The translations under genes and the position numbers were made by a program. The notes beneath the pieces are model-generated. The model worked only from the letters and a program-made list of their open reading frames with translations. It made no database searches and was not told the DNA's origin. From NCBI GenBank assembly GCA_964537265.1, contig CAZHZE010000001.1, positions 91,103-155,102 of the forward strand: a stretch of 64,000 bases of DNA, read 5' to 3'. How positions within the stretch are numbered: the stretch's first letter is position 1; the number at the start of each line of letters is the position of its first letter. Positions 1,894-39,932 of the stretch are shown here, in pieces. Source of the stretch: an uncultured Gammaproteobacteria bacterium (GTDB taxonomy: Bacteria > Patescibacteriota > Patescibacteriia > Patescibacteriales > GWC2-42-12).

Positions 1894-1920
1894 TTTATTT
1901 AATTCGTAATTTAAAATTGA

Positions 1921-3054: not shown

Positions 3055-3060
3055 AATTTT

Positions 3061-6876: not shown

Positions 6877-6887
6877 ATTTTTATATT

Positions 6888-8087: not shown

Positions 8088-8100
8088 AAAAGGTAAAAAT

Positions 8101-8553: not shown

Positions 8554-8561
8554 AAATAACT

Positions 8562-9002: not shown

Positions 9003-9003
9003 T

Positions 9004-10254: not shown

Positions 10255-10258
10255 AATT

Positions 10259-11494: not shown

Positions 11495-11512
11495 TGTGAT
11501 ATAATAAATATT

Positions 11513-12679: not shown

Positions 12680-12680
12680 T

Positions 12681-13211
12681 ATGATTACTTTAAACCTAAT
12701 TTCCGAGGAATTAAAAAAAGAAATAAAACTACGTCATCTTTATTTATTTATAAAAAAAATAAATTTGGCGCTAATTGTTATTACTATTATTATTGCGATT
12801 ATTCTTTTAGCTGCCAAAACCATATTGCAAGTAAATTTTAATAATATCGTTGAGCAAACTACGCTGGTAACCAAAAATAACCAAGGGTATAACAATAAAA
12901 TAAAAGAAATAAATAGTAAAATAGATTTTATAGAAAAAATACAGAACGATTTCATACCTTGGTCAAATTTATTAGAGATTATAGCTGAGATAACGCCTGG
13001 AGATGTTAATCTATATTATTTAAAAATTAATGAAGACAAATCCATTAAAATTAAAGGCAAGGCTAATTTACGTGATAGCTTATTAAATTTTAAACAAAAG
13101 ATGGAGGCCGCCACAGTCTTTAAAGATATCGATTTTCCTATAAAAAATATTTTAGAAAAAGAAAATATTGATTTTGAAATAAATGCTAAAATAATTGTTG
13201 ATAAGATATAA
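12681..13211 (+). CDS. pilN: PilN-like bitopic pilus alignment protein
   Basis: 176 aa. N-terminal ITLNLISEE (INLLP-like) motif, single TM, position after pilM. Confidence 0.6.
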   Translation: MITLNLISEELKKEIKLRHLYLFIKKINLALIVITIIIAIILLAAKTILQVNFNNIVEQTTLVTKNNQGYNNKIKEINSKIDFIEKIQNDFIPWSNLLEIIAEITPGDVNLYYLKINEDKSIKIKGKANLRDSLLNFKQKMEAATVFKDIDFPIKNILEKENIDFEINAKIIVDKI

Positions 13212-13219
13212 ATTTATCT

Positions 13220-13816
13220 ATGAATGGCATTAAATACTTAAAACTAAATTTAAAAAATAAAATTACCATAACTATGGTTGGTTTTATTATAATAATTTTA
13301 TCTTTAGTTTATTTTATTGTCGCTCCGACAATCAAAGATATAAAAACTATGGGCAATTCGATAGAAGCGCAAAGAGAAGATTTAGAAAAAAAATATATTA
13401 AGGGCCAAAGTTTAAAAAAATTGACTGAAAATTTAAATAAAATAGAGCCTAAACTTGAATTACTAAACCAAATTTTTATTAATAAAAATCGAGAGTTAGA
13501 ATTTATTACTAGTTTAGAAAAAGAAGCAAATAAAAACCAAATAGGTCAAAAAATAAATTTAAGTTCTTTAGAAAAAACAGAAAACCAAAATTTCGGAAAA
13601 ACCAATCTACAACTCTTTACTAAAGGAAATTTTATAAAACAATTGCAATATTTAAAAGATTTAGAACAATTAAACTATTATATAAATATTAATGTTATTG
13701 AATTATCGCCGCTAACTAGCGGGGAACAATTAAAAATGTTTGGTCAAGAATCTCAAGCCGCCGCAGGACAAACTAACCTTAATATGTATATTAGCGCTGA
13801 TACTTATTGGAATTAA
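13220..13816 (+). CDS. PilO-like bitopic coiled-coil protein
   Basis: 198 aa. One TM then a predicted coiled coil. Synteny after pilM-pilN. Confidence 0.45.
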   Translation: MNGIKYLKLNLKNKITITMVGFIIIILSLVYFIVAPTIKDIKTMGNSIEAQREDLEKKYIKGQSLKKLTENLNKIEPKLELLNQIFINKNRELEFITSLEKEANKNQIGQKINLSSLEKTENQNFGKTNLQLFTKGNFIKQLQYLKDLEQLNYYININVIELSPLTSGEQLKMFGQESQAAAGQTNLNMYISADTYWN

Positions 13817-16234: not shown

Positions 16235-16975
16235 TTAATATATTTTAACTATCATACCTATTTCCGCCCAATTGTAAATTAATTTAGCCGGTCCGATGCC
16301 TAAACGAATGCAACCATGAGAAACCGGGATACCTAAATGACTTTCTCCTTCACGATAACCGTTAGGCCACACCGGTAATTCATGAATACCAAATTTACCC
16401 TGGCCTAGACCAATCCAATAAGGCATCCATAATCCGTAAGGCGACCAAGCCTTAGGGGCTTTATTTAAAATTTTAAATTCTCCTTTCGGCGTAGGCGTTG
16501 ATGGTTTGCCGGTGGAAACTTTAAAAGTGCCCATTTCTACCCCGGCTAAAAAATAACTTAGTTCCTGATTTTTGATATTAATTTCAATTTGTTTTAATAA
16601 TTTAACGCCTGCTTGAGAATTTAGCGGATCATGACCGCTATTTATCTCTTCTCCATCTTTATAGCCATCTCCATCGGTATCTGGGTTAGTTAAATCTGTC
16701 TTAAATTTTATTTCCTGTTCATCATTTAATCCGTCATGGTCATAATCGTTATTTTTCGTTTTTACTTTTTCTGTATTTAATGCGGAATAACCAGCCGCCA
16801 CTTCAACGCCGTCACTATAGCCATCGCCATCAGTGTCAGGATTTAAAAAATTAGTGTGATAAATATTTATTTCATCTTCATCAAATAGGCCATCTTTATC
16901 GCTATCAATTTTTACATCAGCCAAACAAGGAACAGCTAACAAAAATAAAATGGCTATTAAAGCTATTTTTTTCAT
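16235..16975 (-). CDS. secreted L,D-transpeptidase (YkuD) with thrombospondin-type-3-like Ca-binding repeats
   Basis: 246 aa. Signal peptide, repeated DxDxDG motifs (DTDGDGYSDGVE, DHDGLNDEQE, DTDGDGYKDGEE), catalytic SHGCIRL. Confidence 0.85.
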   Translation of the reverse strand: MKKIALIAILFLLAVPCLADVKIDSDKDGLFDEDEINIYHTNFLNPDTDGDGYSDGVEVAAGYSALNTEKVKTKNNDYDHDGLNDEQEIKFKTDLTNPDTDGDGYKDGEEINSGHDPLNSQAGVKLLKQIEINIKNQELSYFLAGVEMGTFKVSTGKPSTPTPKGEFKILNKAPKAWSPYGLWMPYWIGLGQGKFGIHELPVWPNGYREGESHLGIPVSHGCIRLGIGPAKLIYNWAEIGMIVKIY

Positions 16976-19537: not shown

Positions 19538-20824
19538 CTATTTTTTATTTAATATTTCTATCGCTTTGTTAATTTGCGGATCTTTATCAGCGTTATAATC
19601 TTCCAGGATTAAATCTATCTGAATATCAGGAGTTATGCCCTGATCATTAATATTATAGCCTTTTGGCGTCAACCATTTAGCTACAGTTATTTTTATAGAT
19701 GAACCATCATCCATATCTTCTAGGGTTTGCACCGATCCTTTGCCAAACGTTTTCATTCCTACTATAGTAGCTTTGCCATAATCCTTTAACGCCCCGGCAA
19801 CAATTTCCGAAGCTGAGGCGCTACCTTGATTAACTAAAACAACTGTTGGAAAATTTTTTAATCTAGCTAAACCTCGATTTTTATACTCGTTCTTTTTTTC
19901 CTGGCTAAATTGCTCTGATACTATGATGCCTTCGTCAATCCATTCACTAGCTACATCAATAGCAGTTTCTAAATATCCTCCTGGGTTATTTCTTAGATCA
20001 AGAATAATACCTTTAGGATTTTTACTAACCGCTTCAGCTACCGCCTGTTTAAACAAATCGCTAGTATCATCATTAAAATTAGTGATGGTAATAATAAATA
20101 TACCATCTTCACTTATTTTTGTTTTAACGCTTTTAACTATAATCATTTCTCTAATTATAGTAATATCTTCAGTTTTCTCAAAACCTTTTCTAAAAATAGT
20201 TAAAGTAACTTTAGTGCCTTTTGGCCCGCGTATTTTATTTACTACTTCATCAATTGTTAAACCAGCCGTTGACTCTCCGTCGACCGCATAAATCTGATCT
20301 CCGGCTTGCAGACCAGCTTTTTCCGCCGGCATACCGGCCAGGGGCGCGACAATAGTTATAATATCATTTTTTTTACCTAATTCAGCGCCGATACCTTCGA
20401 ATGTTCCAGCCAAATCATTAGAAAATTCCTTGGCTATTTTTGGATCCATAAAAATAGTATAAGGATCGCCGGTTGATTCTACTAATCCCTTTAAAGCTCC
20501 ATAAAACATTTTTTTGTCATCTAACTTATCTTTATCAACATATTTTTCTTTCAGCTGATCCCAAACATCCCAAAATAAATTAAAATCAATATCTTTGGTT
20601 AATTTGTTGGCTGGGGCAGTAATATATTTATTATAAACTTGGCCAGCATAAACTGCTTCTTTTAAACTCACGGCTTTCAAAAATTCATTTTTTTGCGATG
20701 ACAACATGCCCGCACCAAAAGCGACTGATAATAAAAATAAATTTAATAAAATAACGCCGGTAATTTTCCAGCGCTTAAATCTCTTAATTTCCGGCGCGCT
20801 TGATGGTAAATTCTGATTATCCAT
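19538..20824 (-). CDS. carboxy-terminal processing protease (S41) with PDZ domain
   Basis: 428 aa. PDZ (AGLQAGDQIYAVDG), RNNPGG, catalytic GSASASEIVAGALKD. Confidence 0.9.
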   Translation of the reverse strand: MDNQNLPSSAPEIKRFKRWKITGVILLNLFLLSVAFGAGMLSSQKNEFLKAVSLKEAVYAGQVYNKYITAPANKLTKDIDFNLFWDVWDQLKEKYVDKDKLDDKKMFYGALKGLVESTGDPYTIFMDPKIAKEFSNDLAGTFEGIGAELGKKNDIITIVAPLAGMPAEKAGLQAGDQIYAVDGESTAGLTIDEVVNKIRGPKGTKVTLTIFRKGFEKTEDITIIREMIIVKSVKTKISEDGIFIITITNFNDDTSDLFKQAVAEAVSKNPKGIILDLRNNPGGYLETAIDVASEWIDEGIIVSEQFSQEKKNEYKNRGLARLKNFPTVVLVNQGSASASEIVAGALKDYGKATIVGMKTFGKGSVQTLEDMDDGSSIKITVAKWLTPKGYNINDQGITPDIQIDLILEDYNADKDPQINKAIEILNKK

Positions 20825-20960
20825 AGATAATTATTGAGTATTACTTATTATATATTATCATATCTGGGTTTATTTTGACAAATCAATTTAAGGCATTGAA
20901 AAATAAGCAAATTTAGGTTATTATAAATATAATAATAAATAATAAAAATATATAAATATT

Positions 20961-22259
20961 ATGTCTAATTTTGTAATAAAAGGCGGCAAAAAACTCCATG
21001 GTAAAATTAAAACTAATTCAGCTAAAAATTCAGCTGTGTCCATTCTTTGCGCTCTCCCCATGATTAAAGGAAAAACAATTTTAAATAATATGCCGCGCAT
21101 TGAAGAAGTCAATCGGATTATTGAAATTTTAACCTCTATCGGTTTAAAAATAAGCTGGGCTGGATCTAGCACTTTACACGTCTTAAATAATGGTAAAATT
21201 AACTTAAAAAAAATAAATATAGAATCATACGAGAAAACCAGATCGGCTATTTTACTTATTGGTTCTCTGGCTTCTATTTTTAATAAATTTTCTCTGCCAA
21301 AAATTAGCGGCTGTAAATTAGGAAAACGTACTGTTAATCCGCATATGATCGCCTTAAACCATTTGGGAATAGAGGTTAAAAAAACTAACAATTTATTTCA
21401 TATTAACCGCGGCAAGGCCAAAGGATCAGATTTTACTATGTATGAATCTGGCGATACAGCCACGGAAAACGCTATTTTAGCAGCGGTTTTGCTTCCTGGA
21501 AAAACAAAAATAAATTTAGCCTCGCCTAATTATATGGTGCAGGATTTATGTTACTTTTTGATCAAAGCTGGGGCGAAAATAAAAGGCGTAGGAACAACAA
21601 AATTAGAAATTACCGGCGTAAAAAAATTAAAACAAATAAGCTACTCTATAATGCCTGATCCAATAGAATCTATGGCTTTTATCGCTATTGCTATCGCTAC
21701 GGAATCAAAATTAAAAATCACTGGCTGCCCGATAGAATTCTTAAGTTTAGAATTAGAAAAATTAAGAGTCATGGGACAAAAAATGAAAATTAGCAAAACT
21801 TATAAATCAAGCAATGGTAAATTCGACTTGGTTGACATAGAAATAATTCCTTCAAAATTAACCGCTCTACCGGACAAAATTTACGGCCGCCCTTTCCCAG
21901 GATTAAATATCGATAATTTGCCGTTATTTTTACCAATTTTGATAAAAGCTCATGGGCAAACTTTAGTACATGACTGGGTTTATGAAAATAGAGCCGTATA
22001 TTATCTAGAATTAAATAAACTCGGCGCAGACATTATGCTTCATGACGCTCACCGAATAACAGTCTCTGGGCCATCTAAATTAAGACCGGCGGAAATTATT
22101 TGCCCGCCAGCCTTAAGACCAGCTATAAACCTTTTAATTTGCATGCTCGCTGTTAAAGGCACCTCAACGCTCTATAATTCATACTCGATTGACCGCGGTT
22201 ATGAAAATATCTGCGAACGCTTGAATAAACTCGGCGCTAATATAAAAAAAGTTGATTAA
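20961..22259 (+). CDS. murA: UDP-N-acetylglucosamine 1-carboxyvinyltransferase
   Basis: 432 aa. IKGGKKLHGKIKTNSAKNS start, active-site loop ISGCKLGKRTVNPH (Cys retained). Confidence 0.9.
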   Translation: MSNFVIKGGKKLHGKIKTNSAKNSAVSILCALPMIKGKTILNNMPRIEEVNRIIEILTSIGLKISWAGSSTLHVLNNGKINLKKINIESYEKTRSAILLIGSLASIFNKFSLPKISGCKLGKRTVNPHMIALNHLGIEVKKTNNLFHINRGKAKGSDFTMYESGDTATENAILAAVLLPGKTKINLASPNYMVQDLCYFLIKAGAKIKGVGTTKLEITGVKKLKQISYSIMPDPIESMAFIAIAIATESKLKITGCPIEFLSLELEKLRVMGQKMKISKTYKSSNGKFDLVDIEIIPSKLTALPDKIYGRPFPGLNIDNLPLFLPILIKAHGQTLVHDWVYENRAVYYLELNKLGADIMLHDAHRITVSGPSKLRPAEIICPPALRPAINLLICMLAVKGTSTLYNSYSIDRGYENICERLNKLGANIKKVD

Positions 22260-22293
22260 TCTCGCTAAAAAATATTTAATAAGATAAAATACT

Positions 22294-23610
22294 ATGACTC
22301 TAAAAGTTAGAAGAATATTGAGTATAATATTTATTATCTTATTTCTTGTTATGACGCCGGCTATTATGTTATATGCTGCCGGTTATCGTTTAGGTAATAA
22401 TGGTTTATCTATCCAAAAAACCGGCATGTTTATTATTGACTCAAGGCCTAAGGGCGCAAAAATATATATAGATGGCGAGCTACAAAAAACCTGGCCGAAC
22501 TCAATTATCACCACGCCGGCTAAAATAAAAAATTTATTGCCTAAAGAATATGAATTAAAACTTGAACTTGATGGCTATTGGAGTTGGCAGAAAAAATTAG
22601 TCGTTAAGCCCGGGGCTTCAACTTTCGCTGAAAATATTTATCTTTTCAAAAATGATTTGCCGGTCCAAATTTTACCAGCCGATATTGAATCTATCCGTTT
22701 ATGGTCAGGCAAAAATCAATCTATAATTTTATCCAAAAATTTGATAACTTTTTTAAATTTAAACGATGAATCGCAGAAAATAATTCAACGCGACAAATTA
22801 GTCGCAAAAAATATATTTTTTTCTAAAGATCAAAATAAAATAGTAATAGATAATTATCTATACAATTTAATAAACTTAAATTCATCTATCAACTTAAAAA
22901 ATTTCAATATTAACTCATTTAATTATAAATGGGATGATAATATTTTATATTATCAGGACAAACTTTCTATTTATAAATTAGAAGAAAATAATAAACCGAT
23001 AAAAATCGTCAATAATAAAATATTTAATGATTATTTAGTAAAAAATAATTATTTATATTTAATCATTGAAACTAAACAAGGATTTGATTTGGAAATAATA
23101 GATATAGATAGCGGAAAAAATTTAAAAAATATAAACCTACCTGCAGCCGGTAATTATTCTTTTATTAATACTGAAAATAATCTGCTCAATATTTATGATA
23201 AAAATCATAAAACTCTTTTCTTGATTAACCCTATGTCAACTTTTGAGCCATTAGTAGCTGTTATTAATAACTTAAAAACGGCTTCTTGGAATGACAGCAA
23301 CAGCTTAGTATACTCTAATGATTTTGAAATATGGCTTTATGATTTATCATCAAAAAATAAAACTTTAATAACCAGAATATCTGATACTATAACTAACGCT
23401 ATCATGCACCCAAGCAAAGACTACATTATTTACTCCACAGAAAAAACTATCAACACTATTGAGCTAGACGAAAGGGACAAAAAAAATGTTAATGAGTTAG
23501 TAAAATTTGATTCTGTTAATTCATTCATCTTAACTAACGGCGACATTCTTTATTTTTCCGGTAAAATAGGCAATTCAGAGGGTTTATATAAAAAATCTTT
23601 GATGCAATAA
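22294..23610 (+). CDS. membrane-anchored PEGA-domain protein, beta-propeller-like C-terminus
   Basis: 438 aa. N-terminal TM, PKGAKIYIDGELQ...YELKLELDGYWSW (PEGA-like). The remainder is Asn/Ile-rich and repetitive. Confidence 0.5.
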   Translation: MTLKVRRILSIIFIILFLVMTPAIMLYAAGYRLGNNGLSIQKTGMFIIDSRPKGAKIYIDGELQKTWPNSIITTPAKIKNLLPKEYELKLELDGYWSWQKKLVVKPGASTFAENIYLFKNDLPVQILPADIESIRLWSGKNQSIILSKNLITFLNLNDESQKIIQRDKLVAKNIFFSKDQNKIVIDNYLYNLINLNSSINLKNFNINSFNYKWDDNILYYQDKLSIYKLEENNKPIKIVNNKIFNDYLVKNNYLYLIIETKQGFDLEIIDIDSGKNLKNINLPAAGNYSFINTENNLLNIYDKNHKTLFLINPMSTFEPLVAVINNLKTASWNDSNSLVYSNDFEIWLYDLSSKNKTLITRISDTITNAIMHPSKDYIIYSTEKTINTIELDERDKKNVNELVKFDSVNSFILTNGDILYFSGKIGNSEGLYKKSLMQ

Positions 23611-23615
23611 TAAAT

Positions 23616-23652
23616 AAAAAAACAGACTGATGCTATTTTAGTCTGTTTTTTT
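23616..23652. terminator. bidirectional rho-independent terminator
   Basis: AAACAGACT / AGTCTGTTT 9-bp stem, A-run upstream, T7 downstream, between convergent genes. Confidence 0.8.
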
Positions 23653-23673
23653 ATTTATTCGCAAATTTATTTT

Positions 23674-24798
23674 TTATTTAAATTCGTCTAAGACTGCGAT
23701 TAAAGTAATGAATTTACCGTCACGAAAAACTTTTAATCCTATTTTATTGCCTGGTTTATATTTTTGTATAACAGACAATAAAGTTGTTTGACCTTGCAAT
23801 TTAATAGCGTTTACTTCTGTTATAATATCGCCTGGCTTTAGACCAGCTTTATCGGCCGGAGAATCAGATAAAACAGAAGGTGTTTCTTCTTTATTGCCAG
23901 TCGGTATCCAAGCGCCAGTATCTTTCGTTAAATTATTTTCTTCAGCAATTACCGGGGTCAGCATAATATATCTAACGCCCAATCTAGTCCTAACTATGCG
24001 CCCTATTTCTTTAACAGTCTTTATAACTGGCCTAGCATCATTTATTGGTATGGCGAATCCTATAGATGTTCCGCTTTGGTCAATAGCTACGTTAATGCCC
24101 ACAATATTACCATTTAAATCTATTAACGGGCCGCCGGAATTACCTAAATTTATTTCCGCATCAGTCTGTATGACATTATCTAAAATTTCCGTCGTTGATC
24201 CAGATTGGTCTGAAGCCTCTAAACTTCTGCCTAACCCGCTAACTATGCCTTTGGTGGCGCTATTTTGGTATTTGCCTAAAGTATTGCCAATAGCAATAAC
24301 CGTTGAACCAATCTGCAATTTATCACTGTCTCCTAGCTGAGCATAAGGTAAATTTTTATCAAAAATCTTTAACACCGCCAAATCATTAATCGGATCCTTG
24401 CCGATCAGCTGCGCATAATATTTTTTGCCAGAATTTAAAACAATTTTATACTCTGCGGTTTTTTCATCACCAGCGCTTACCACATGCTTATTGGTAAGAA
24501 TAAGGCCATCAGAGGAAATTAAAAAACCTGTGCCAGAACCTTTCTGTACCGTTTCTGTTTTTTGTGTTTGCTCTCCAGTATTTAAATTTATTGTAGTGGT
24601 AGTTTCTTTATCCATTATAATAATATTTACTACCGCCGGCATAACTTTCTTTATAGCTCTAATAGTCGCTTCTTGATCATCCAAATGCAAAGTATCGGCA
24701 ACAACATCGGTTATATTTGAATTATTATTTAAAACAAAAAAACTTACACTAAGACAAGTTAATAACAAACTTATTATGATATATTTTTTTATTGACAT
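23674..24798 (-). CDS. htrA: HtrA/DegP-family serine protease with PDZ domain (catalytically intact)
   Basis: 374 aa. His (TNKHVV), Asp (DLAVLKI), Ser (GNSGGPL), C-terminal PDZ. Confidence 0.9.
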   Translation of the reverse strand: MSIKKYIIISLLLTCLSVSFFVLNNNSNITDVVADTLHLDDQEATIRAIKKVMPAVVNIIIMDKETTTTINLNTGEQTQKTETVQKGSGTGFLISSDGLILTNKHVVSAGDEKTAEYKIVLNSGKKYYAQLIGKDPINDLAVLKIFDKNLPYAQLGDSDKLQIGSTVIAIGNTLGKYQNSATKGIVSGLGRSLEASDQSGSTTEILDNVIQTDAEINLGNSGGPLIDLNGNIVGINVAIDQSGTSIGFAIPINDARPVIKTVKEIGRIVRTRLGVRYIMLTPVIAEENNLTKDTGAWIPTGNKEETPSVLSDSPADKAGLKPGDIITEVNAIKLQGQTTLLSVIQKYKPGNKIGLKVFRDGKFITLIAVLDEFK

Positions 24799-26075: not shown

Positions 26076-27188
26076 ATGATTTATTTATTTATTTTAGCCA
26101 CCACGGCTATTTTAGCGATTATTTTCGCGGCGCATTATTTTTTATTTCAATCGTTAATTTATTTTTTGGGCATAACCAACCAGGTCTATCTAATAATATT
26201 AAAAAGTATCTTTATTTTTTTACCCATTAGTTTTATTGTAGCGTCAATTTTAATTTCTCGTTTTTCAAATATTTTAGTACGGCTTTATTATATTATTTCA
26301 GCCAGCTGGTTTGGCATATTACTTTATTTTACGCTCGCTTGTCTACTCACCTATTTTATTATATGGTTAGGAAAAATTTTTTCTTTTGACATAAACCAAA
26401 AAAGTATATTTATTAGTTTATTAATAACCGCTACCACCATAATAATTTATGGCATTATTGCTGCGCAAAATATAAAAATAAAAGAATTAAATATTTCTTT
26501 GCCTAACATACCAAACGAATGGCGAGGTAAAACCGCAGTTTTTATAAGCGACTTACATTTAGGCACAATTGATAATTATGAATTCGCTTCAAAAGTCGCA
26601 GATCAGATTGAAAATTTAAAACCTGATTTACTATTAATCGGCGGGGATTTTTATGATGGCCAAGCCAATGTTAACTTAAATAGATTAGCGCAAATTTTTT
26701 CAACAATTAAAACGCCTTTAGGCAAATTTTTCGTAACTGGCAATCATGAAGAATTCGGCGACAACACTAAATATATTGAAGCGATTGCTAAAGCCGGCAT
26801 AAAAGTTTTAGATGATGAAATGGTAGAAATAAACGGGCTACAAATAATCGGCATTGATTATAAATCTGCTTATAATAAAAATGATTATGAAAATATTTTA
26901 GCAGATCTTAAAATAGACAAAAACAAACCAAGTATTTTATTAAGACATGTGCCTGATAAAATGAGTGTACCGCCTAAATTTGGCATTTCTTTGGAACTCT
27001 GCGGCCATGCGCATAAAGGTCAGCTCTTCCCAATCCAAATTATTGAACATTTTTTATACAACGGCTTCCAGTATGGTCTAAAAAAATCCGGTTCTACTCT
27101 AGTTTATACTTCTTCAGGGACTGGCACCTGGGGACCGCCTATGAGAATTTTAGCCGCACCTGAAATAGTTAAAATAAAATTTAAATAA
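26076..27188 (+). CDS. membrane-anchored calcineurin-like metallophosphoesterase
   Basis: 370 aa. Four or five N-terminal TMs, then ISDLHLG, GGDFYDG, GNHE, GHAHKGQ. Confidence 0.8.
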   Translation: MIYLFILATTAILAIIFAAHYFLFQSLIYFLGITNQVYLIILKSIFIFLPISFIVASILISRFSNILVRLYYIISASWFGILLYFTLACLLTYFIIWLGKIFSFDINQKSIFISLLITATTIIIYGIIAAQNIKIKELNISLPNIPNEWRGKTAVFISDLHLGTIDNYEFASKVADQIENLKPDLLLIGGDFYDGQANVNLNRLAQIFSTIKTPLGKFFVTGNHEEFGDNTKYIEAIAKAGIKVLDDEMVEINGLQIIGIDYKSAYNKNDYENILADLKIDKNKPSILLRHVPDKMSVPPKFGISLELCGHAHKGQLFPIQIIEHFLYNGFQYGLKKSGSTLVYTSSGTGTWGPPMRILAAPEIVKIKFK

Positions 27189-27190
27189 TA

Positions 27191-27224
27191 AAAAACAGCC
27201 GATAATTATACCGGCTGTTTTTTT
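27191..27224. terminator. bidirectional rho-independent terminator
   Basis: AACAGCCG / CGGCTGTT stem with flanking A5 and T7 runs. Confidence 0.8.
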
Positions 27225-27235
27225 ATACCAATGGA

Positions 27236-28150
27236 TTATACTTTTGAATACTTGCCTACCGCCACCAAACTAGCCATTATATTTATAAAACTAGCGGCTA
27301 AAAATTCTAAACCAAAAATTAACAAAAAATTACTATTATAATAATCTATTAAATTAATTTGAGCGCCGGCAAAAAATGAAGCCAAATAAGGCTGAATTAA
27401 ACTTAAAAATGGATAAATAACAGCTAAAATAACAACTACGCCAAAAAATGAGTAAATTAAACCAGAAATCAAATAAGGAGCGCGTATAAACCAAGCTGAA
27501 GCTCCAACTAACCTCATAATTGCAATTTCACGCTTATGAGTGGAAATAGCTACGCGCACAGCGTTATAAACAACTAATAGGGTTATAAAAATAAAAAGTA
27601 AACTAATAAATAAACTAGCTTCGTTGGCTTTTTGCGATATGCTATTTATCTTATTTAAAATAGCTTTATGATCATCAAAATTTCTTGATTCGATTATTTG
27701 ATTATCAATTTTATTTAGATCGACAATCAATTCGTCATAATTATCAATATTTTTTGGCTTTATTATTAAGCTTGGTGATAAAGGGTTTTTACCCAGCTCC
27801 AAAAGAGCTTGCAATATTTCAGGATCGTTTTTATGTTTTTCCCTAAAACTTTCTATGGCTGCCTGTTTAGAAATATAATTAACTTGCTTAGCAGAATTTA
27901 AATTCTCAATTTCAATTTTTAAAGCTAATATAGCTTCTTCGCTAGAATCTGGTTTTAAATATAAACTAATATCAACTTTTTCTTTTACTGCATTTACCGT
28001 AGCAGAAGTTAAAACTTTTACTATCACTAATAAATTAACAGAAAATAAAGCCAAAGAAATAATAACTATGGTAATAAGAGATAGCCAAATATTGCGAATA
28101 ATATCTTGAAAACTAAATTTTATAACTCTTAAAAATGATAATAGAAACAT
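27236..28150 (-). CDS. ftsX: cell-division ABC transporter permease-like protein FtsX
   Basis: 304 aa. 4 TM with a large first extracytoplasmic loop, IAIMRLVGASAWFIRAPY motif. Confidence 0.85.
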   Translation of the reverse strand: MFLLSFLRVIKFSFQDIIRNIWLSLITIVIISLALFSVNLLVIVKVLTSATVNAVKEKVDISLYLKPDSSEEAILALKIEIENLNSAKQVNYISKQAAIESFREKHKNDPEILQALLELGKNPLSPSLIIKPKNIDNYDELIVDLNKIDNQIIESRNFDDHKAILNKINSISQKANEASLFISLLFIFITLLVVYNAVRVAISTHKREIAIMRLVGASAWFIRAPYLISGLIYSFFGVVVILAVIYPFLSLIQPYLASFFAGAQINLIDYYNSNFLLIFGLEFLAASFINIMASLVAVGKYSKV

Positions 28151-28224
28151 AAAAACAAATTTATATTTGATATATTATATTTTTTAAAATATTAAAAACT
28201 TTTTTGAAAAAATTTTTAAGGATT

Positions 28225-28905
28225 TTATAAAACGTATTTGCCGACTGCTTGATCACTAACAATTAATCCGTTTTCTATAGTAATAACCCTTTTCTTTAGT
28301 TTATTAACAACTTCTCTATTATGAGTCACTAGAAGAACAGTGGTGCCAAATTTATTAATTTTCTGCAAAATTTCAATAATTTCGTCAGCATTAATAGAAT
28401 CTAAATTGCCTGTTGGTTCATCTGCTAAAAGAATTTTTGGTCGATGAACTAAAGCGCGAGCTATAACAGCTCGTTGCTGCTCGCCTCCGGAAATTTGTAG
28501 CGGATAACGATGCATTTTGTTTTCTAAACCCACAATCTTTAAAACTTGCGGGACAATACCATTTATTTTTTTCTGTGATTCTCCACAAACCTGCAGAGCG
28601 AAAGCAACATTTTCAAATAAAGTCTTTTTTTGCAATAATTTAAAATCTTGAAAAACTACGCCAATTTGTCTTCTTAAAACTGAAATTTCTGACTGACCTA
28701 TATTAGTAATATCCCATCCGCCAATTACTATTTTTCCTTCATCTGCCTTCTCTTCGCTTATTAAAAGTTTTACTAATGTTGTTTTTCCTGTGCCTGATTG
28801 ACCTACGATAGAAACAAATTCTCCGGGTTTGATATGCAAATTTACTTTACGAAGCGCAGTAATATCGGGCGGATAAATTTTAGTAATATTTTTTAAATTA
28901 ATCAT
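28225..28905 (-). CDS. ftsE: cell-division ATP-binding protein FtsE
   Basis: 226 aa. Walker A GQSGTGKTT, signature LQISGGEQQR, Walker B ILLADEP. Confidence 0.9.
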   Translation of the reverse strand: MINLKNITKIYPPDITALRKVNLHIKPGEFVSIVGQSGTGKTTLVKLLISEEKADEGKIVIGGWDITNIGQSEISVLRRQIGVVFQDFKLLQKKTLFENVAFALQVCGESQKKINGIVPQVLKIVGLENKMHRYPLQISGGEQQRAVIARALVHRPKILLADEPTGNLDSINADEIIEILQKINKFGTTVLLVTHNREVVNKLKKRVITIENGLIVSDQAVGKYVL

Positions 28906-28906
28906 A

Positions 28907-30508
28907 TTATTTATTTTTCAACACATATTTTAATAATCTCTCGGTCTCGTTAAAACTATTTTCCCTAGTATCAACACCCATGGTAACTGCAATTATATCT
29001 TTTCCTGAACTATTTTTTACTCTAACCATTAGACAATATTGAGATTCATCAATATAGCCAGTTTTAGACCCGGTGATATTAAAATTACTAATATGCAAAA
29101 GTTTATCAGTATTTTTTATAGTATGAGACTTTTTTGTATTATTGGTAATAAATTTATACTGAGCCATAGTGCTGGCTTTTTGAATAATCGGATTAGTATA
29201 AACTTCTTTAGTTATTATAGCATAATCAAGCGCTGAACTCACATTTTTAGGAGATAAACCTGTCGGTTCAATAAAATGTGTGATAGTAGCGCCCCAATTA
29301 ATTACTTCCTGATTCATTTTTTCTATAAATTCATCGCGCGTTAAACCGCTTACCCTAACCAAAGTTTCAATAGAATTATTGGCAGAACCGACTAAAGCGG
29401 CATAAAGCAAATCTTCAATAGTTAAAGTATCGCCATCGTTTAATTTCAATCTAGCTGATTCCCATTTATTTACATACTCATAATTATATTCTTCATCTTT
29501 TATGCTATAAGTGACTAAATTATTTAACGTCGGCTTAGTATCAAGAAAAACTTTAATAGCTACTAATTTAGTTAAACTCGCCAAAGGTAAGGTGCTAGTA
29601 GCATTTTTTTGCCAAAGTATTTCGCCTGTTTGTTCGTCAACGGCGACAGCTGATTTAGCGGTAAGCTTGAACTCTGTTTTAGCTCCTGAATCATCTATAT
29701 CTAAAATTTTATTATTTTCCGGAGTAACGCTAAGCGGTTGCACTCTCACATCAATTACTCCCGCGCCAATAGAAGATAATTTTTTAAAAGCCACTTTATC
29801 CAAATCAATAACTCTATCTGGGTGCAATTTTCTGTCCGGTCCAAAATCATTAACTACCACATCAACAAACTTATTGTTAGCGGTATTATAAACCCGCAGT
29901 TTTGAACCTTTAGGAAAATCCGGCGAAGCGGCGAATAAACCTCCCTTATATGAATACCAACTGGCTCGACCGGTAACTAAAGCTTCTGGGTTGGCAAAAA
30001 CTGCAATACGGGCAAACGGTAAATGGATTAAAGAACGCACAAATGATTTGTCCGGATAATCAACGGTTGGTAAAGGCCTCCATGAAGAATAATTTTTATC
30101 ATAATAAAAAACTTGCTTATAATAATTTGAGTCTTTATTATAAGATAACTGCACATAGAAAGGTTTTTTATTATCATAAGCGGATTTATTTTTAAATTCA
30201 AATTGATAAACATTACTTAATCTTTCCAGCTGCCAAGGCTCATCCATCTCTTCATTTAATTCTACAATTTCTACTCCCGTCGAATCGCTTAATATTCCGG
30301 GAGTTAAAGAAAGTTTTAAAACATCCTTAAAAGCGCCAACTGTATAACCTCGAACGATTGTTTTTTTGTCTAAATTTATAAAGTAAAAATTGTTTTGTGA
30401 TGATATATTATTTTTCTGCGCATAAACAAAACCACCGGCCGTTTGCGCCAGCGTTAATATTAGAAAAAATATTACAATTTTACTATAAATTTGACTTTGC
30501 CCAATCAT
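28907..30508 (-). CDS. secreted fusion protein: RlpA-like DPBB domain plus S11 D-alanyl-D-alanine carboxypeptidase domain
   Basis: 533 aa. Signal/TM, GRASWYSYKGGLFAASPDFPKGSKLRVYN...VVVNDFGPD (RlpA DPBB). Then SLTK (SxxK), GSANNS (SxN), SKTGYI (KTG). Its stop is 1 nt before the ftsE ATG. Confidence 0.75.
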   Translation of the reverse strand: MIGQSQIYSKIVIFFLILTLAQTAGGFVYAQKNNISSQNNFYFINLDKKTIVRGYTVGAFKDVLKLSLTPGILSDSTGVEIVELNEEMDEPWQLERLSNVYQFEFKNKSAYDNKKPFYVQLSYNKDSNYYKQVFYYDKNYSSWRPLPTVDYPDKSFVRSLIHLPFARIAVFANPEALVTGRASWYSYKGGLFAASPDFPKGSKLRVYNTANNKFVDVVVNDFGPDRKLHPDRVIDLDKVAFKKLSSIGAGVIDVRVQPLSVTPENNKILDIDDSGAKTEFKLTAKSAVAVDEQTGEILWQKNATSTLPLASLTKLVAIKVFLDTKPTLNNLVTYSIKDEEYNYEYVNKWESARLKLNDGDTLTIEDLLYAALVGSANNSIETLVRVSGLTRDEFIEKMNQEVINWGATITHFIEPTGLSPKNVSSALDYAIITKEVYTNPIIQKASTMAQYKFITNNTKKSHTIKNTDKLLHISNFNITGSKTGYIDESQYCLMVRVKNSSGKDIIAVTMGVDTRENSFNETERLLKYVLKNK

Positions 30509-30554
30509 ATAAATATAATTATATCATAAAATACGTAAAAATTAAAAATTTTAA

Positions 30555-30625
30555 GCGGGTATAGTATAATGGCAGTACGCGACCTTCCCAAGGTTGAGGC
30601 ACGGGTTCAATTCCCGTTACCCGCT
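30555..30625 (+). tRNA. tRNA-Gly (anticodon CCC), no encoded CCA
   Basis: Acceptor GCGGGTA/TACCCGC, anticodon loop TTCCCAA, T arm ACGGG-TTCAATT-CCCGT. Confidence 0.9.
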
Positions 30626-30629
30626 CCCT

Positions 30630-30962
30630 ATGTTAAAAAAATCTGAATATATTAAAATTCGAGTTAGCGTACCCGTTGAAGCCGCCGATAAAATTCGTCT
30701 AGCGATTGGTAAAGCTGGCGCCGGACAGCAAGGAAATTACAAATTCACTAGTTCTTCTTTAAAGCAGACTGGTTATTTTAAGCCTATGGCCGGCGCACAT
30801 CCAGCGATTGGCGAAATTGGCAAACTTGAAAAAGTACAAGAAGAATTAATCGAAACCATCTGCCACAAAAATTTAGTAAAAAAAGTTATTTTTGAAATTA
30901 AAAAAGTACATCCTTACGAAGAACCAGCTATTGATATTATACCCAGATATGATATAGTTTGA
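30630..30962 (+). CDS. PII-like small protein (COG3323 / NIF3-insert-like family)
   Basis: The track ORF starts at a TTG inside tRNA-Gly. The ATG at 30630 gives 110 aa: MLKKSEYIKIRVSVPVEAADKIRLAIGKAGAGQQGNY...HPYEEPAIDI. Confidence 0.55.
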   Translation: MLKKSEYIKIRVSVPVEAADKIRLAIGKAGAGQQGNYKFTSSSLKQTGYFKPMAGAHPAIGEIGKLEKVQEELIETICHKNLVKKVIFEIKKVHPYEEPAIDIIPRYDIV

Positions 30963-30968
30963 TTTTAT

Positions 30969-31041
30969 GCCGAGATAGCTCAACTGGTAGAGCAGCGGTA
31001 TCGTAAACCGCAGGTTGGAGGTTCAATTCCTCTTCTCGGCT
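30969..31041 (+). tRNA. tRNA-Thr (anticodon CGU), no encoded CCA
   Basis: Acceptor GCCGAGA/TCTCGGC, anticodon loop ATCGTAA, T arm GGAGG-TTCAATT-CCTCT. Confidence 0.9.
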
Positions 31042-31101
31042 CAAAAAATAATTTTGTAAACTATAAGTTCGCCCCGTTTTGATATTTCAGAAATAAGCAC
31101 C

Positions 31102-31178: not shown

Positions 31179-32489
31179 TTAATTAGCTAAAATAAAAATT
31201 TTTATTTTTGATAATTTCTCGGCGACATATTGGTCTAAAGTTTTTGCGCCGACAAAAAGATATTTAATGCCTAATTGTCCGTTTATATTATTAATTACCT
31301 GAACAATATAATACCCCGTGGGGCTTAAAATTATATCGCTAATTTGGTTATCTTTTAGGTTTAAAATGCCTGGGCCGAAAATTTTTGAAGCATCTTCAGC
31401 ATTATAATAACTTAAATCTTGATATTTGTCGGCGTACCTGCTTAATTCTTCTATGTTGTTAATATTTTTTACCAGGTCATTAATTTTTTTAATTCTAGAG
31501 AAACCTACTTGGTTATAATCATCGTCTACGATGAAAGATTTAACCAAATCTTCTTCCTGGGTGTTAGGCGGCAAATTATATTTTTTGCTTAAATTATTTA
31601 GAATTAACCAATTAGCCAAAATATCTCTTTTTTGATTTAAATTATTAAAGTTGTTTTTATTTATATTTATAAAATCATGATAATTAATTATTCCTTGGCT
31701 TGTTATTACCGCCGGCACTGGTATAGAATATTCTATTTTTTTAACAAAACTATTATCAATTTTAAATCTTAAAACCAATAAACAAAAAAATAGATAAGTA
31801 AAAATTAAAAAAATAAATAAATACAGTATGCCATAAAAAAAATTTTTCTTAACCGCTAAAAACAGACTATTTAATTTGTATTTTAAATTTTTTTTAAAAA
31901 TTTTAATAGCTTTTTTACGTTTTATTTTTATTTTTTCTTTAGCTTTAATTTTAGCTAATTTTAATTCTTCTTTTATTCTTTTTATTTCCTCTGCGCGCTT
32001 TATCTTTTCTAAACGCTTATTTTCCCTTATTACTCTTTCTCCTTCTTTTGCTTCCTCCTCTAATTTTAATTTTTCTTGCAACTTTTTACTTTTTTCAATT
32101 TTAGCCTTTTCCTCAGCTTCAATTTTGGCTTTTTTTATCATGATTTCAGCCTGGGCCTTTTCTTTGATTTGACGTTTATTTTTTTCAACAATTTCTTTTT
32201 TAACCAATTCTTCTTGCTGAATTTTTTCTTGAGATTTTTCTATATTTAAACCTATATTTTTCTTTTCTATATCTTTACTATTTAAAGATGATTTTTTAAA
32301 TATATCCCTAACTTTTGATTTAATTCCATCAACTTTATTAAAACCGGAAGGCAAAATTTCGGGAATTTCCTTTTTTTCGACTAGTTCCGTATCTTTTTCT
32401 CCTATATATCTTAAAACTATTTTACGATTCTCTTTAATTTCTTCTGGGGTTAATTTTTTTATGCCATCTAAACTTTTTACCATAAACAA
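31179..32489 (-). CDS. membrane-anchored protein with long Lys/Glu-rich coiled coil and a weakly parvulin/SurA-like C-terminus
   Basis: 436 aa. About 130 aa of KE-rich low complexity, one TM, C-terminal ...SPTGYYIVQV... (weak PpiC-like resemblance). Confidence 0.45.
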   Translation of the reverse strand: MFMVKSLDGIKKLTPEEIKENRKIVLRYIGEKDTELVEKKEIPEILPSGFNKVDGIKSKVRDIFKKSSLNSKDIEKKNIGLNIEKSQEKIQQEELVKKEIVEKNKRQIKEKAQAEIMIKKAKIEAEEKAKIEKSKKLQEKLKLEEEAKEGERVIRENKRLEKIKRAEEIKRIKEELKLAKIKAKEKIKIKRKKAIKIFKKNLKYKLNSLFLAVKKNFFYGILYLFIFLIFTYLFFCLLVLRFKIDNSFVKKIEYSIPVPAVITSQGIINYHDFININKNNFNNLNQKRDILANWLILNNLSKKYNLPPNTQEEDLVKSFIVDDDYNQVGFSRIKKINDLVKNINNIEELSRYADKYQDLSYYNAEDASKIFGPGILNLKDNQISDIILSPTGYYIVQVINNINGQLGIKYLFVGAKTLDQYVAEKLSKIKIFILAN

Positions 32490-32506: not shown

Positions 32507-32941
32507 TTACTTTAAAAAATAATTAAGCCATTTTTCCGGGTTTGACTTCTTAACTTCTGGTTTTATTTTTTCGTAACCAGGAATGCTAAAAATTGTCTGG
32601 CTGCTAGAAGAATTTTCAATTAAACTATTTTCATTTGCATTTTTTATTATCATTACTTCTTCGCCAGGTTTTTTTAGACCTAAATTAAGTCTGGCCTGCT
32701 CTTCAGCAAATTGGTCAGATTCCAAATAGGAAACAAAATTTTTTAAATCAACGTTTTTATTTTGTAAATCAGCAATTTCTTTTTTCAGTTCACTAATTTC
32801 TTTATTAATCTTATACTGCTTAAGAGTGTTTTTTATAAAAGGAAAACTAATTAAAATAATTATAATTAAACCTAGCGATGCTAAAAATTTTTGGTTAAAG
32901 AATATTTTTTGAAAATTATTATTTTTTCTTTTTGCAATCAT
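32507..32941 (-). CDS. septum formation initiator FtsB/DivIC-like
   Basis: 144 aa. One TM then a leucine-zipper-like coiled coil, and ...SDQFAEEQARLNLGLKKPGEEV typical of the DivIC/FtsB family. Confidence 0.7.
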   Translation of the reverse strand: MIAKRKNNNFQKIFFNQKFLASLGLIIIILISFPFIKNTLKQYKINKEISELKKEIADLQNKNVDLKNFVSYLESDQFAEEQARLNLGLKKPGEEVMIIKNANENSLIENSSSSQTIFSIPGYEKIKPEVKKSNPEKWLNYFLK

Positions 32942-33191: not shown

Positions 33192-34598
33192 CTAAAAATA
33201 TTTTTTAATCTTTTCTTTAAGGCTAGTGCCATAAAGATCAACTTTTATTTCTTTTATAATAACTTGCCCCTGAGTAAATTCTTCGGCCTTAAGAGAAGGA
33301 ATGGAAATTAAAAATTGATATTTTCCCTTTTCTTGATAAGCTTTAGTTAAATCAAAATCAGCGCTAGCTATTTGCCAACCGTCATAGTCAATCGGCGTTT
33401 CATAATTTGTTAAAACATATTCTATATTTTCGTTTTTTATATCTAAACTTTCGCTGATATTTTTAAAACTTGGGTCAAGCAAACTATCTTCTGAAAAACT
33501 AAAAACACCATCTCCGGAAATAATCATATCGTCCTTATAAAGTTCTATTTTTACCGGCTGAACTAAAGTTTTCATTGAAAATTGTCTATAAGTTTCTTCA
33601 ATATCTAAAAAATTATCGCCAATTTTTAGTCTGCCAGCACTAGCGGGATTTATAGTTTGGGCGTTAACTAAACGGCTATTAGTAAATAAAATTATATTAT
33701 TTTTATTGCCTTCAGCTAGCCAAATTTTATTAATTAAAGAAAATTGGCTTTGTTTTGTCTTTATGCTATCAGTTATTATATCGTCATTAACAATAATGCT
33801 AAAACGATAAACACCTTCTGGCAAATCAGGCATTTTTATAGAGGCTTGACGTTCAACTTCATCTTTATTTTTATCGTTAATAATTATTGAATAGATTTCC
33901 TTGCTGCCTGAATAAATTTTAATTTCAACTGGATCTTCGTCAGCGTTAATATTTAAGTCGCTAAAATTAAAATTATAATTAAGCTCCTCCTGTTTTATGT
34001 AAGTATAAAATTGATAAGAACCGCGAAATTTATAATTAATTATATTATTTTCTTGCGTTGGCTTGTAATTACCAATTAAAAAATTGTCTTTAAGGCTATA
34101 ATTATATAAAGCGATTTTATCCTTGACCGGTAAATTATTAGAAAATTCTTCAACTGTATTATATTTTTTTTCACGCTGGATTAATTTTATATCATCTTCC
34201 CCTCTTGTAATTTGCCAAACTAAAAGCAACTGGTCAATAATTTTATTTTGCAAAGGCTTTAAATCATAGCTCCAGGAATTTTTATTATTCAGCAGACCAA
34301 TTTCCATAATCGGAAAAGTTGTATTGTTTTTAAATTTTATAGTTACTTTGGCATGCTCAAATCTTCTTGACGGTTTTAAAGAAAAATAAATCGGATCGCC
34401 TTTTATTTCTGCGCCTGTTTCTTTTGTAATAACTCTTTCCTCTGGGGCTAATTTACCAATAAAATAACTTGGACGGCTAAAATTATAAATGTAGCTTATA
34501 GACCCCGACGGCACTATTTTCATATAAACAAACCAGCTAATAATTATACCTAAAATTAGCCATAAAAAAACTCTAATTTTAAAAAATGTTTTATTCAT
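33192..34598 (-). CDS. hypothetical N-terminally anchored extracytoplasmic protein
   Basis: 468 aa. One N-terminal TM, no recognisable motif. Overlaps the upstream GT gene by 8 nt. Confidence 0.5.
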   Translation of the reverse strand: MNKTFFKIRVFLWLILGIIISWFVYMKIVPSGSISYIYNFSRPSYFIGKLAPEERVITKETGAEIKGDPIYFSLKPSRRFEHAKVTIKFKNNTTFPIMEIGLLNNKNSWSYDLKPLQNKIIDQLLLVWQITRGEDDIKLIQREKKYNTVEEFSNNLPVKDKIALYNYSLKDNFLIGNYKPTQENNIINYKFRGSYQFYTYIKQEELNYNFNFSDLNINADEDPVEIKIYSGSKEIYSIIINDKNKDEVERQASIKMPDLPEGVYRFSIIVNDDIITDSIKTKQSQFSLINKIWLAEGNKNNIILFTNSRLVNAQTINPASAGRLKIGDNFLDIEETYRQFSMKTLVQPVKIELYKDDMIISGDGVFSFSEDSLLDPSFKNISESLDIKNENIEYVLTNYETPIDYDGWQIASADFDLTKAYQEKGKYQFLISIPSLKAEEFTQGQVIIKEIKVDLYGTSLKEKIKKYF

Positions 34599-38319: not shown

Positions 38320-38713
38320 TAATATCAAGGTAAGCTATAAGCCGGATTCTGTATAAATGATTATCTATCTAGCCTTAGCGTTGCCGCTAAGGTCAAGCGA
38401 GCTACTTTTCATTATTCCGCGGATACGGAATAGTTTGCTCTTGCTCCAGGCAGGGTTTACCATCTAGCGCTGTTGCCAACGCAGAATGCTCATAGCCTAA
38501 GTTATTTGGATATCCTAATATAACTTAAACACTGGGCAACTTTTCACCTTTCCCTCATGTTATACGAGGTAGTATTGTCTCTGTGGCACTTTCCCTAAGA
38601 TTACTCTTGGTGGACGTTATCCACTGCCGCTTTCCAGCATAAAAAATGCTTTTGGAGTCCGGACTTTCCTCCCACTTAAATTAGTGGGCAATCATCCGCT
38701 TACCTTGATATTA
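38320..38713 (-). ncRNA. rnpB: RNase P RNA, bacterial type A
   Basis: The minus strand contains GGGAGGAAAGTCCGGACTCC (P4 5'), GGGAAAGTGCCACAGAGA, AAGGTGAAA, GATGGTAAACCCTGCCTGGAGCAAGAGCAAA, ACAGAATCCGGCTTATAGC (P4 3'). P1 pairs 38322-38335 with 38698-38711. Confidence 0.92.
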
Positions 38714-39749: not shown

Positions 39750-39843
39750 AATATTTTTCCTCCTTTTGAAAAATATAACTTTGTGAACAATAGAGGACTC
39801 GAACCTCTGACCTTTCCGATGTGAACGGAACGCTCTAACTTCA

Positions 39844-39856
39844 CCCCGTCACCTTT
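39844..39856. repeat. 13-bp inverted-repeat arm flanking the inner tRNA-Val (3' side on the minus strand)
   Basis: AAAGGTGACGGGG (minus-strand reading) is perfectly complementary to CCCCGTCACCTTT at 39945-39933. Confidence 0.9.
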
Positions 39857-39858
39857 TG

Positions 39859-39932
39859 TGGGCACAAAAGGACTCGAACCTTTGACCTCTCCGATGTGAA
39901 CGGAGCACTCTAACCAACTGAGCTATGTGCCC
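39859..39932 (-). tRNA. tRNA-Val (anticodon CAC), inner complete gene, no encoded CCA
   Basis: GGGCACA-TA-GCTC-AGTTGGTTA-GAGT-G-CTCCG-TTCACAT-CGGAG-AGGTC-AAAGG-TTCGAGT-CCTTT-TGTGCCC-A. Confidence 0.92.

Follow-up and report, generated by a model that had tools for sequence, protein, structure and literature searches.

The stretch of DNA analysed here (the window) comprises 64,000 nucleotides (nt) of contig CAZHZE010000001.1 in assembly GCA_964537265.1, and its positions 27236–30508 are best explained as part of a cell-division operon of three genes in a Falkowbacteria-like patescibacterium, in which a promoter region is followed by the gene for a predicted secreted peptidoglycan enzyme of 533 amino acids (aa), ftsE, ftsX and a terminator. 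FtsEX is the best-understood ATP-binding cassette (ABC) 'transporter' that sends force across the membrane to govern the cutting of the cell wall. An FtsEX division operon is of a known kind, and what is unusual here is the candidate partner, in which an N-terminal beta domain, an RlpA-type double-psi beta-barrel (DPBB) and an S11 penicillin-binding protein (PBP) domain are joined in one polypeptide. The operon structure makes this protein a plausible FtsEX effector, and we regard the case for a functional coupling to FtsEX, be it direct or indirect, as evenly balanced.

The three genes are consecutive minus-strand open reading frames (ORFs), the enzyme gene (30508–28907, 533 aa) being followed by ftsE (28905–28225, 226 aa) and ftsX (28150–27236, 304 aa), in a region of about 30 % G+C. 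The stop codon of the enzyme gene, TAA, occupies 28909–28907, and a single base separates it from the ftsE ATG at 28905; this 1 nt spacing had been pointed out in an earlier reading made from the letters and ORFs alone (the sequence-only reading), and both the coordinates and the junction sequence agree with it. The gap between ftsE and ftsX is 74 nt long and AT-rich. Since only about 45 nt lie between the ATG of the enzyme gene and a divergent tRNA-Gly gene (30554–30628), the enzyme gene heads the unit. Within that gap there is a weak promoter-like site (30512–30539, minus strand, 9 of 12 matches) that we offer as a suggestion only: a scan of the region returned 24 promoter-like sites where 20 ± 4 were expected, which is not above chance, and no promoter is therefore claimed. 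Thirteen nucleotides past the ftsX stop codon is a strong terminator-like hairpin (27190–27223, minus strand) with a 15 bp GC-containing stem and a run of Ts, which marks where the transcription unit ends and may terminate the convergent gene at 26076–27188 as well; no terminator-like sites were found in the gaps between the enzyme gene, ftsE and ftsX. Judged by these sequence features, the three genes form a single transcription unit.

The identities of ftsE and ftsX are well supported. FtsE scores 270.2 bits with TIGR02673, over the NCBIfam equivalog cut-off of 264.85. FtsX matches both the Pfam extracytoplasmic domain family FtsX_ECD (PF18075; 57 bits, cut-off 23.5) and the FtsX family (PF02687; 44.2 bits, cut-off 25.5), as well as the solved FtsX chains 8tzj, 8idb and 8i6o with E-values of 3 × 10−18 to 2 × 10−14, and its extracytoplasmic domain corresponds to aa 59–149 (27704–27976). 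Its scores lie under the NCBIfam equivalog and exception cut-offs (TIGR00439, 166.6 against 255; NF038347, 149.3 against 225; NF038346, 109.2 against 250), and the window FtsX is thus a divergent patescibacterial member of the family.

The tight linkage from which the sequence-only reading had proposed an FtsEX effector recurs in relatives: 78 of 80 genome loci have ftsE downstream of the enzyme gene, as do 63 of the 67 metagenome loci that are informative, and the linkage is also found at 40 % enzyme identity. The genome loci, drawn from one genome per species, carry the full-length protein at 49–83 % identity; in the 78, the next gene downstream is ftsE, on the same strand, and in the other two the contig stops 0 or 444 nt past the enzyme gene. 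The median gap in the 78 loci is 35 nt (14 overlaps; 68 of the gaps at 150 nt or less), and ftsX follows in all 71 loci where it was detected, the sequence ending first in the remaining seven that have ftsE. A further 80 loci came from a metagenome scan that started from relatives lacking the S11 domain; of these, 28 have the S11-less architecture (24 informative, ftsE downstream in 22 with a median gap of 14.5 nt) and 52 the fused architecture (43 informative, ftsE downstream in 41). The flanks have been rearranged while the block persists: the gene downstream of the window ftsX is common to just six of the 80 genome loci, and a glycosyltransferase cluster that lies upstream in the window is found downstream in four. 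This argues that the block has been kept by selection and not by recency alone. In a few genomes, inserts of 0.6–2.5 kb separate the enzyme gene from ftsE, or ftsE from ftsX, at L012:2215-3325, L098:7581-8643, L102:2215-3325 and L064:9485-13230.

The first gene product had been described in the sequence-only reading as a fusion of an RlpA-type barrel and an S11 domain. The Pfam scan bears this out, both domains being above cut-off, and all of the motifs then quoted are present (GRASWYSYKGG, VVVNDFGPD, SLTK at 311–314, SAN at 375–377 and KTG at 482–484) and are invariant or nearly so across 87 homologues. Judged from these alignments, the catalytic motifs are intact and kept by purifying selection. 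Full-length homologues with 62–83 % identity make up more than 120 clusters within the Falkowbacteria/Patescibacteria; those with names come from metagenome-assembled genomes of Candidatus Falkowbacteria and Patescibacteria, and the database labels for the fusion are generic ('RlpA-like double-psi beta-barrel domain-containing protein' or 'serine hydrolase'). An AlphaFold2 model of the full 533-aa protein, built with the 87 homologues, has a mean predicted local distance difference test (pLDDT) value of 90.8 and a predicted template-modelling (TM) score of 0.82, and consists of a hydrophobic helix (aa 3–25), a low-confidence or disordered linker (aa 26–35), an all-beta domain (aa 40–177), the barrel (aa 179–260) and a PBP fold (aa 275–533); aa 36–260 are all-beta and the helices of the mature protein are confined to the S11 fold. 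The N-terminal hydrophobic helix (30422–30508, minus strand) is probably a cleavable signal peptide, with a cleavage site placed by eye between VYA and Q according to the −3/−1 rule. No cysteine is present in the signal region, and hence no lipobox Cys.

The RlpA-type barrel (aa 179–262; 29723–29974, minus strand), whose nearest PDB chain is PA4485 (4avr), matches Pfam DPBB_1 over aa 193–256 with 37.7 bits (cut-off 28.8). The barrel is shortened, the match spanning profile positions 26–83 of 83, and it scores below the RlpA family cut-offs (TIGR00413, 40 against 82.15; PRK10672, 23.3 against 201). Pfam gave no match to a SPOR domain in the 533-aa protein, and a lipoprotein signal is likewise absent. 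Escherichia coli RlpA is inactive, the catalytic Asp (D168 in Pseudomonas aeruginosa) having been swapped for Ser (PMC9712689). The E. coli segment is NDRGPYGNDRVISLS and its counterpart in the window protein is NDFGPDRKLHPDRVIDLD; when the two are aligned by eye on the shared ND-GP...DRVI-L motif, the window DRVIDLD falls against E. coli DRVISLS, and because this pairs D235 (in VIDLD) with the E. coli Ser, D235 occupies the catalytic Asp's position. A BLASTP comparison of the window DPBB with E. coli RlpA gave no meaningful alignment. D235 is invariant in the 87 homologues, as are NDxGP and ASWY, and all of these residues are retained in the S11-less relatives.

The S11 domain (aa 275–533; 28910–29686, minus strand) is of the low-molecular-weight PBP type and matches Pfam Peptidase_S11 over aa 279–513 with 141.2 bits (cut-off 27.6), covering profile positions 7–238 of 239, with S311–K314, S375–N377 and K482–G484 conserved in the 87 sequences. 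There is no Pfam match to PBP5_C, and the protein terminates about 20 residues beyond the S11 domain. The sequence-only reading had labelled this part a DD-carboxypeptidase, a name that the comparisons do not establish, since the closest structures and the closest NCBIfam model are DD-endopeptidases of the PBP7/PbpG type, without PBP5_C. Among solved structures, the DD-endopeptidases 6muq and 6azi match best (TM scores of 0.86–0.91 on the target, 23–28 % identity); the top NCBIfam model is the PbpG DD-endopeptidase (PRK11669), at 119.4 bits against a cut-off of 294, so that membership is not established there either, and the scores with the DacA and DacD models (48 against 694 and 63 against 610 respectively) are also below cut-off. 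On these comparisons the domain resembles DD-endopeptidases at least as much as carboxypeptidases, and an endopeptidase activity could equally well be present. We note that a YkuD L,D-transpeptidase bearing bacterial TSP3 repeats is encoded at 16235–16975 (minus strand). Tetrapeptide donors for L,D-transpeptidases are made by DD-carboxypeptidases, and making such donors may be another task of the S11 domain.

The N-terminal domain (aa 36–178, about 140 aa; 29975–30403, minus strand) is all-beta and lies outside any Pfam family, with zero matches even at E-values up to 10. In a phmmer search of the PDB with aa 37–273, significance was confined to the DPBB part, the sole match to the N-terminal domain having an E-value of 1.3. 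Modelled by itself, the domain reaches a pLDDT of 94.2, and a Foldseek search of the PDB with it returned the ankyrin ZU5 domain and subdomain B of GAIN (TM scores 0.60–0.66, E-values 2 × 10−4 to 5 × 10−3, about 10 % identity), a likeness that we take as a resemblance of predicted fold only. The autoproteolysis known from ZU5/GAIN domains was considered and rejected as unlikely here, since the H-(L/F)-(S/T) site is absent and the His is not conserved; the segment IHLPF has no nucleophile at the required position.

Relatives of other architectures indicate which part of the protein goes with ftsEX. An exhaustive search among representatives at 50 % identity yielded 449 clusters with E-values of 10−30 or less, with full-length relatives down to 31 % identity, and genomic contexts are given here for selected representatives. 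At 40 % identity (P0145 and P0148), a PrsA-like gene, the enzyme gene and ftsE are followed by ftsX or by the contig end, with divIC upstream in P0145. S11-less proteins of about 256–300 aa contain the N-terminal domain and the barrel and then end; one of them (L089:2774-3544) lies in the order divIC, PrsA-like gene, S11-less gene, ftsE, ftsX, and 27 further loci among L091–L167 also have such a gene before ftsEX. When the shared region was clustered, the S11-less proteins formed essentially one clade, with the fused proteins as deep outgroups, a pattern most simply read as the PBP domain having been lost once while the linkage to ftsEX was kept. A third architecture of about 420 aa, seen in many clusters, has the N-terminal beta domain joined directly to S11, with no barrel, and in the two contexts seen (P0173, L090:5001-6272; P0194, L177:238-1497) the gene is not beside ftsEX. 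The S11-less clade thus keeps ftsEX and the no-barrel proteins, in these two contexts, lie off it, so that the barrel-containing module tracks ftsEX. From these comparisons, the ftsEX-linked unit is the N-terminal beta domain together with the DPBB, and is neither the peptidase nor the N-terminal domain alone.

The wider neighbourhood is a division cluster of divIC, a PrsA/SurA-like gene, the enzyme gene and ftsEX. A divIC-like gene lies upstream on the same strand in 53 of the 80 genome loci; for a PrsA/SurA-like gene the number is at least 32. In the window, the divIC/ftsB-like gene is at 32507–32941 (minus strand; Pfam DivIC, 55.6 bits) and has counterparts in the distant loci L083, L087, L089 and L172. 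It is followed by a gene with a TTG start (31179–32489, minus strand) for a membrane protein of 436 aa, which has a long Lys/Glu-rich and probably helical N-terminal half, a membrane segment and a weak match to Rotamase/PPIase (E-value about 3 × 10−3, below cut-off); in relatives, its counterparts are clearly recognizable as PrsA-like proteins with SurA_N and Rotamase, always encoded between divIC and the enzyme gene, and proteins of this kind hold that position in L083, L087 and L089. Between the PrsA-like and enzyme genes the window contains a plus-strand insert (30554–31042) with tRNA-Gly(CCC), an ORF of about 110 aa and tRNA-Thr(CGT). The ORF (30630–30962) has no Pfam match and has a homologue in five related loci; in most relatives the gap between the PrsA-like and enzyme genes has other content or none. 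Between divIC and the glycosyltransferase genes, at 33192–34598 (minus strand), is a gene whose 468-aa product has an N-terminal membrane helix and is without a match in Pfam; only eight of the 80 related loci contain a homologue.

Comparison with characterized FtsEX systems shows both what is shared and what is distinctive. The known systems with coiled-coil partners are those of E. coli (EnvC with AmiA/B), Streptococcus pneumoniae (PcsB), Bacillus subtilis (CwlO) and mycobacteria and corynebacteria (RipC). In common with these, the window has a bona fide ftsE, an ftsX bearing FtsX_ECD, a genetically tied gene for a predicted secreted peptidoglycan-active protein, and a division cluster around them. 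To our knowledge, all characterized FtsX partners (EnvC, PcsB, CwlO and RipC) dock on FtsX through a coiled coil and act on peptide bonds. The window candidate, in contrast, is without a coiled coil and is tied to FtsEX by gene linkage, and whereas the known partners are LytM, CHAP or NlpC/P60 proteins, its catalytic domains are a DPBB (glycan) and an S11 domain (serine DD-peptidase). The library of literature that was searched has no paper that ties FtsX to a double-psi barrel protein and none on this operon in Patescibacteria.

Each of the two catalytic domains also has well-studied counterparts. With RlpA of P. aeruginosa and Vibrio cholerae the window protein shares the DPBB_1 barrel, ASWY, NDxGP, (V/I)IDL and the position of the catalytic Asp; unlike RlpA, it has no SPOR domain or lipoprotein signal, its barrel is shortened, and it has an extra ZU5-like domain and the PBP fusion. 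An S11 fold that has the SxxK, SxN and KTG motifs but lacks a C-terminal domain of the PBP5 type is shared with PBP7/PbpG (6muq and 6azi), the Streptomyces K15 DD-transpeptidase and Listeria PBPD2/Lmo2812, although in single-domain PBPs of the PBP7/PbpG type it stands by itself and here it forms the C-terminal domain of a three-domain protein. The domain order DPBB–S11 mirrors the rlpA–dacA part of the E. coli gene order mrdA–mrdB–rlpA–dacA, and the proteobacterial rlpA–dacA/dacC pair represents the same two families in the same order, here joined in one polypeptide (a 'Rosetta stone' fusion); in Proteobacteria, however, rlpA and dacA encode separate proteins and rlpA–dacA lies beside the elongation genes mrdAB and not beside ftsEX. 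At the septum, RlpA works as a lytic transglycosylase on denuded glycans, and it binds PBP7 in vitro (PMC9712689). A further parallel is E. coli PBP4 (DacB), a DD-carboxy/endopeptidase whose localization at midcell needs FtsEX and which binds EnvC (PMC9166362): like PBP4, the window protein contains a low-molecular-weight DD-peptidase connected to FtsEX, here by gene linkage, whereas PBP4 belongs to family S13, is linked through EnvC and a non-catalytic domain 3, and has no operon linkage. The links of RlpA to PBP7 and of PBP4 to FtsEX make the coupling plausible (PMC9712689, PMC9166362).

Taken together, the structure of the operon, its place in a division cluster, the preserved catalytic residues and the lasting adjacency point to a septal remodelling enzyme that is made and coupled with FtsEX. 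The predicted secreted protein joins an accessory beta-sandwich to a lytic-transglycosylase barrel of the RlpA type, which retains its Asp, and to a PBP7-like DD-peptidase whose active site is complete, and it may act at the septum with FtsEX. In such a mechanism, divisome-anchored FtsEX would recruit or switch on the RlpA-like module on the outside of the membrane, glycan strands would then be cut only at the place and time of division, and in lineages that carry the S11 domain, peptide cross-links or terminal D-Ala residues would be cut likewise. The septal localization, the enzymatic specificities and any contact with the FtsX extracytoplasmic domain are the parts of this proposal that we infer. 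With no coiled coil available, any contact with FtsX would be made through a non-coiled-coil interface, and within functional coupling we consider a direct interaction of this new type possible but on the doubtful side. We are similarly tentative, and lean against rather than towards it, about the broadest proposal, namely that the beta-sandwich and RlpA-like barrel constitute a coiled-coil-free class of FtsEX-controlled cutters with an optional DD-peptidase, which in these reduced genomes would replace the EnvC–amidase, PcsB, CwlO or RipC systems and would include the first lytic transglycosylase directly under FtsEX.

Several observations weigh against a coupling of this kind. The AlphaFold2 models contain no coiled coil in the mature 533-aa protein, and a canonical coiled-coil partner may be encoded outside the 64 kb window. 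The N-terminal domain is unlikely to be a dedicated FtsX adaptor because it is also fused to S11 alone away from ftsEX, in the no-barrel proteins already described, whose position is itself a point on this side. Four of the 67 informative metagenome loci are without a downstream ftsE. Among the more distant relatives, P0203 and P0174 (33–34 % identity) are followed by a PMT glycosyltransferase gene, with no ftsEX within 5 kb, and P0124 (L176:1141-3609; 822 aa, 50 % identity) is unlinked to ftsEX. At 31–36 % identity (P0183, P0187 and P0161) the order is divIC, PrsA-like gene, enzyme gene, ABC ATPase gene, MacB_PCD permease gene, ftsE, ftsX, the P0183 contig beginning at the enzyme gene, so that a MacB-type pair lies between the enzyme gene and ftsEX (L082:1654-3608, L083:6521-8432 and L087:6575-8478; also L081:1803-2144); in P0175 (31 %) a MacB-type ATPase gene follows the enzyme gene and the contig then ends. 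The ATPases of these pairs have 224–242 aa and the MacB_PCD permeases 407–415 aa, and at their junctions they either adjoin the enzyme gene or overlap with it. A position right next to ftsE is thus neither ancestral everywhere nor required. Patescibacterial genomes are, moreover, small and dense, which makes adjacency weaker evidence of function. As observations in their own right, we note that in the lineages with the MacB-type pair a single hydrolase gene is followed by two tandem ABC systems of type VII, and that P0124 has a C-terminal GH114 glycoside-hydrolase domain behind the DPBB–S11 fusion and an FtsW/RodA gene about 1.5 kb downstream.

The alternative that survives best is that the gene is co-expressed with ftsEX yet acts independently, its product being a further peptidoglycan-tailoring enzyme needed at the time of the divisome, an RlpA-like strand cutter joined to a class C PBP in the manner of the proteobacterial rlpA–dacA pair, and only co-regulated with FtsEX, which would control a canonical partner encoded elsewhere. 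The lack of a coiled coil speaks for this; divIC and the PrsA-like gene make the cluster a general division and envelope neighbourhood, the DPBB–S11 order copies a proteobacterial arrangement unrelated to ftsEX, unlinked relatives occur, and the MacB-type pair can separate the gene from ftsEX. The adjacency has nevertheless been kept while both flanks were rearranged many times and a whole domain was lost, and the frequent start/stop overlaps and junctions of 1–5 nt suggest coupled translation. Nor was an alternative hydrolase found within the 64 kb window: among the 48 ORFs of at least 150 aa and two shorter neighbours that were scanned, none is an M23, NlpC/P60, CHAP, amidase or EnvC-like gene. 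On balance we see co-expression alone as a serious contender, though one with the weight of probability somewhat against it.

It is also conceivable, but in our judgement improbable, that the DPBB is not an enzyme at all and serves as a peptidoglycan-binding, expansin-like targeting module or as a regulator like the dead LytM factors, which FtsEX would use to position or activate the fused S11 domain or an unlinked enzyme. EnvC shows that FtsEX partners can be pure activators, and the shortened barrel, with its low TIGR00413 score, would fit a role of this kind. The inactive E. coli RlpA is a structural protein of the divisome (PMC9712689), but the Asp that it has lost is invariant here together with NDxGP and ASWY, and the S11-less proteins retain the same residues. 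It is very improbable that the genes adjoin through an accident of history within one closely related clade, without functional meaning: every linked locus is patescibacterial and some distant relatives are unlinked, but the linkage extends from 83 % to 40 % enzyme identity and across two architectures while the neighbours change.

Other features of the window include further envelope and protease genes 2.4–8 kb downstream of ftsX (19538–24798), namely those for an S41 CtpA/CtpB-like protease with a PDZ domain (19538–20824, minus strand), MurA (20961–22259, plus strand), a PEGA-domain protein (22294–23610, plus strand) and an HtrA-like protease (23674–24798, minus strand); S41 proteases are often found near ftsEX–envC in other phyla. 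MurG, FtsW and MraY are encoded at 835–4110 (minus strand), and a type IV pilus cluster at 5155–13816 (plus strand) has genes for a PilB-like ATPase, PilC, PilM and PilN and several unannotated ORFs, with a second T2SSE-type ATPase encoded at 56338–57381. Tandem paralogues of cofactor-independent phosphoglycerate mutase (iPGM; iPGM_N plus Metalloenzyme; 46869–48458 and 48461–50044, minus strand) are part of a glycolysis run of enolase, the two iPGM genes, acetate kinase and PGK. A class A RNase P RNA is located at 38322–38707 (minus strand, 209 bits), and beside tRNA-Val a marginal second tRNA-like match (39784–39932, minus strand; 29.6 bits) is at the threshold and was not called by ARAGORN.

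If the enzyme is merely co-expressed with ftsEX, the locus amounts to an ordinary cluster of division genes in which one product is an unusual domain fusion. The fusion itself supports, in the manner of a 'Rosetta stone', a functional partnership of RlpA-type enzymes with class C PBPs, which has otherwise been hinted at only by the rlpA–dacA gene order and by in vitro binding in Proteobacteria. Should the coupling be real, a glycan-cutting partner that docks without a coiled coil would broaden the repertoire of the FtsEX mechanism, and would give a concrete insight into how the septum is split in the largely unstudied, uncultured Patescibacteria.

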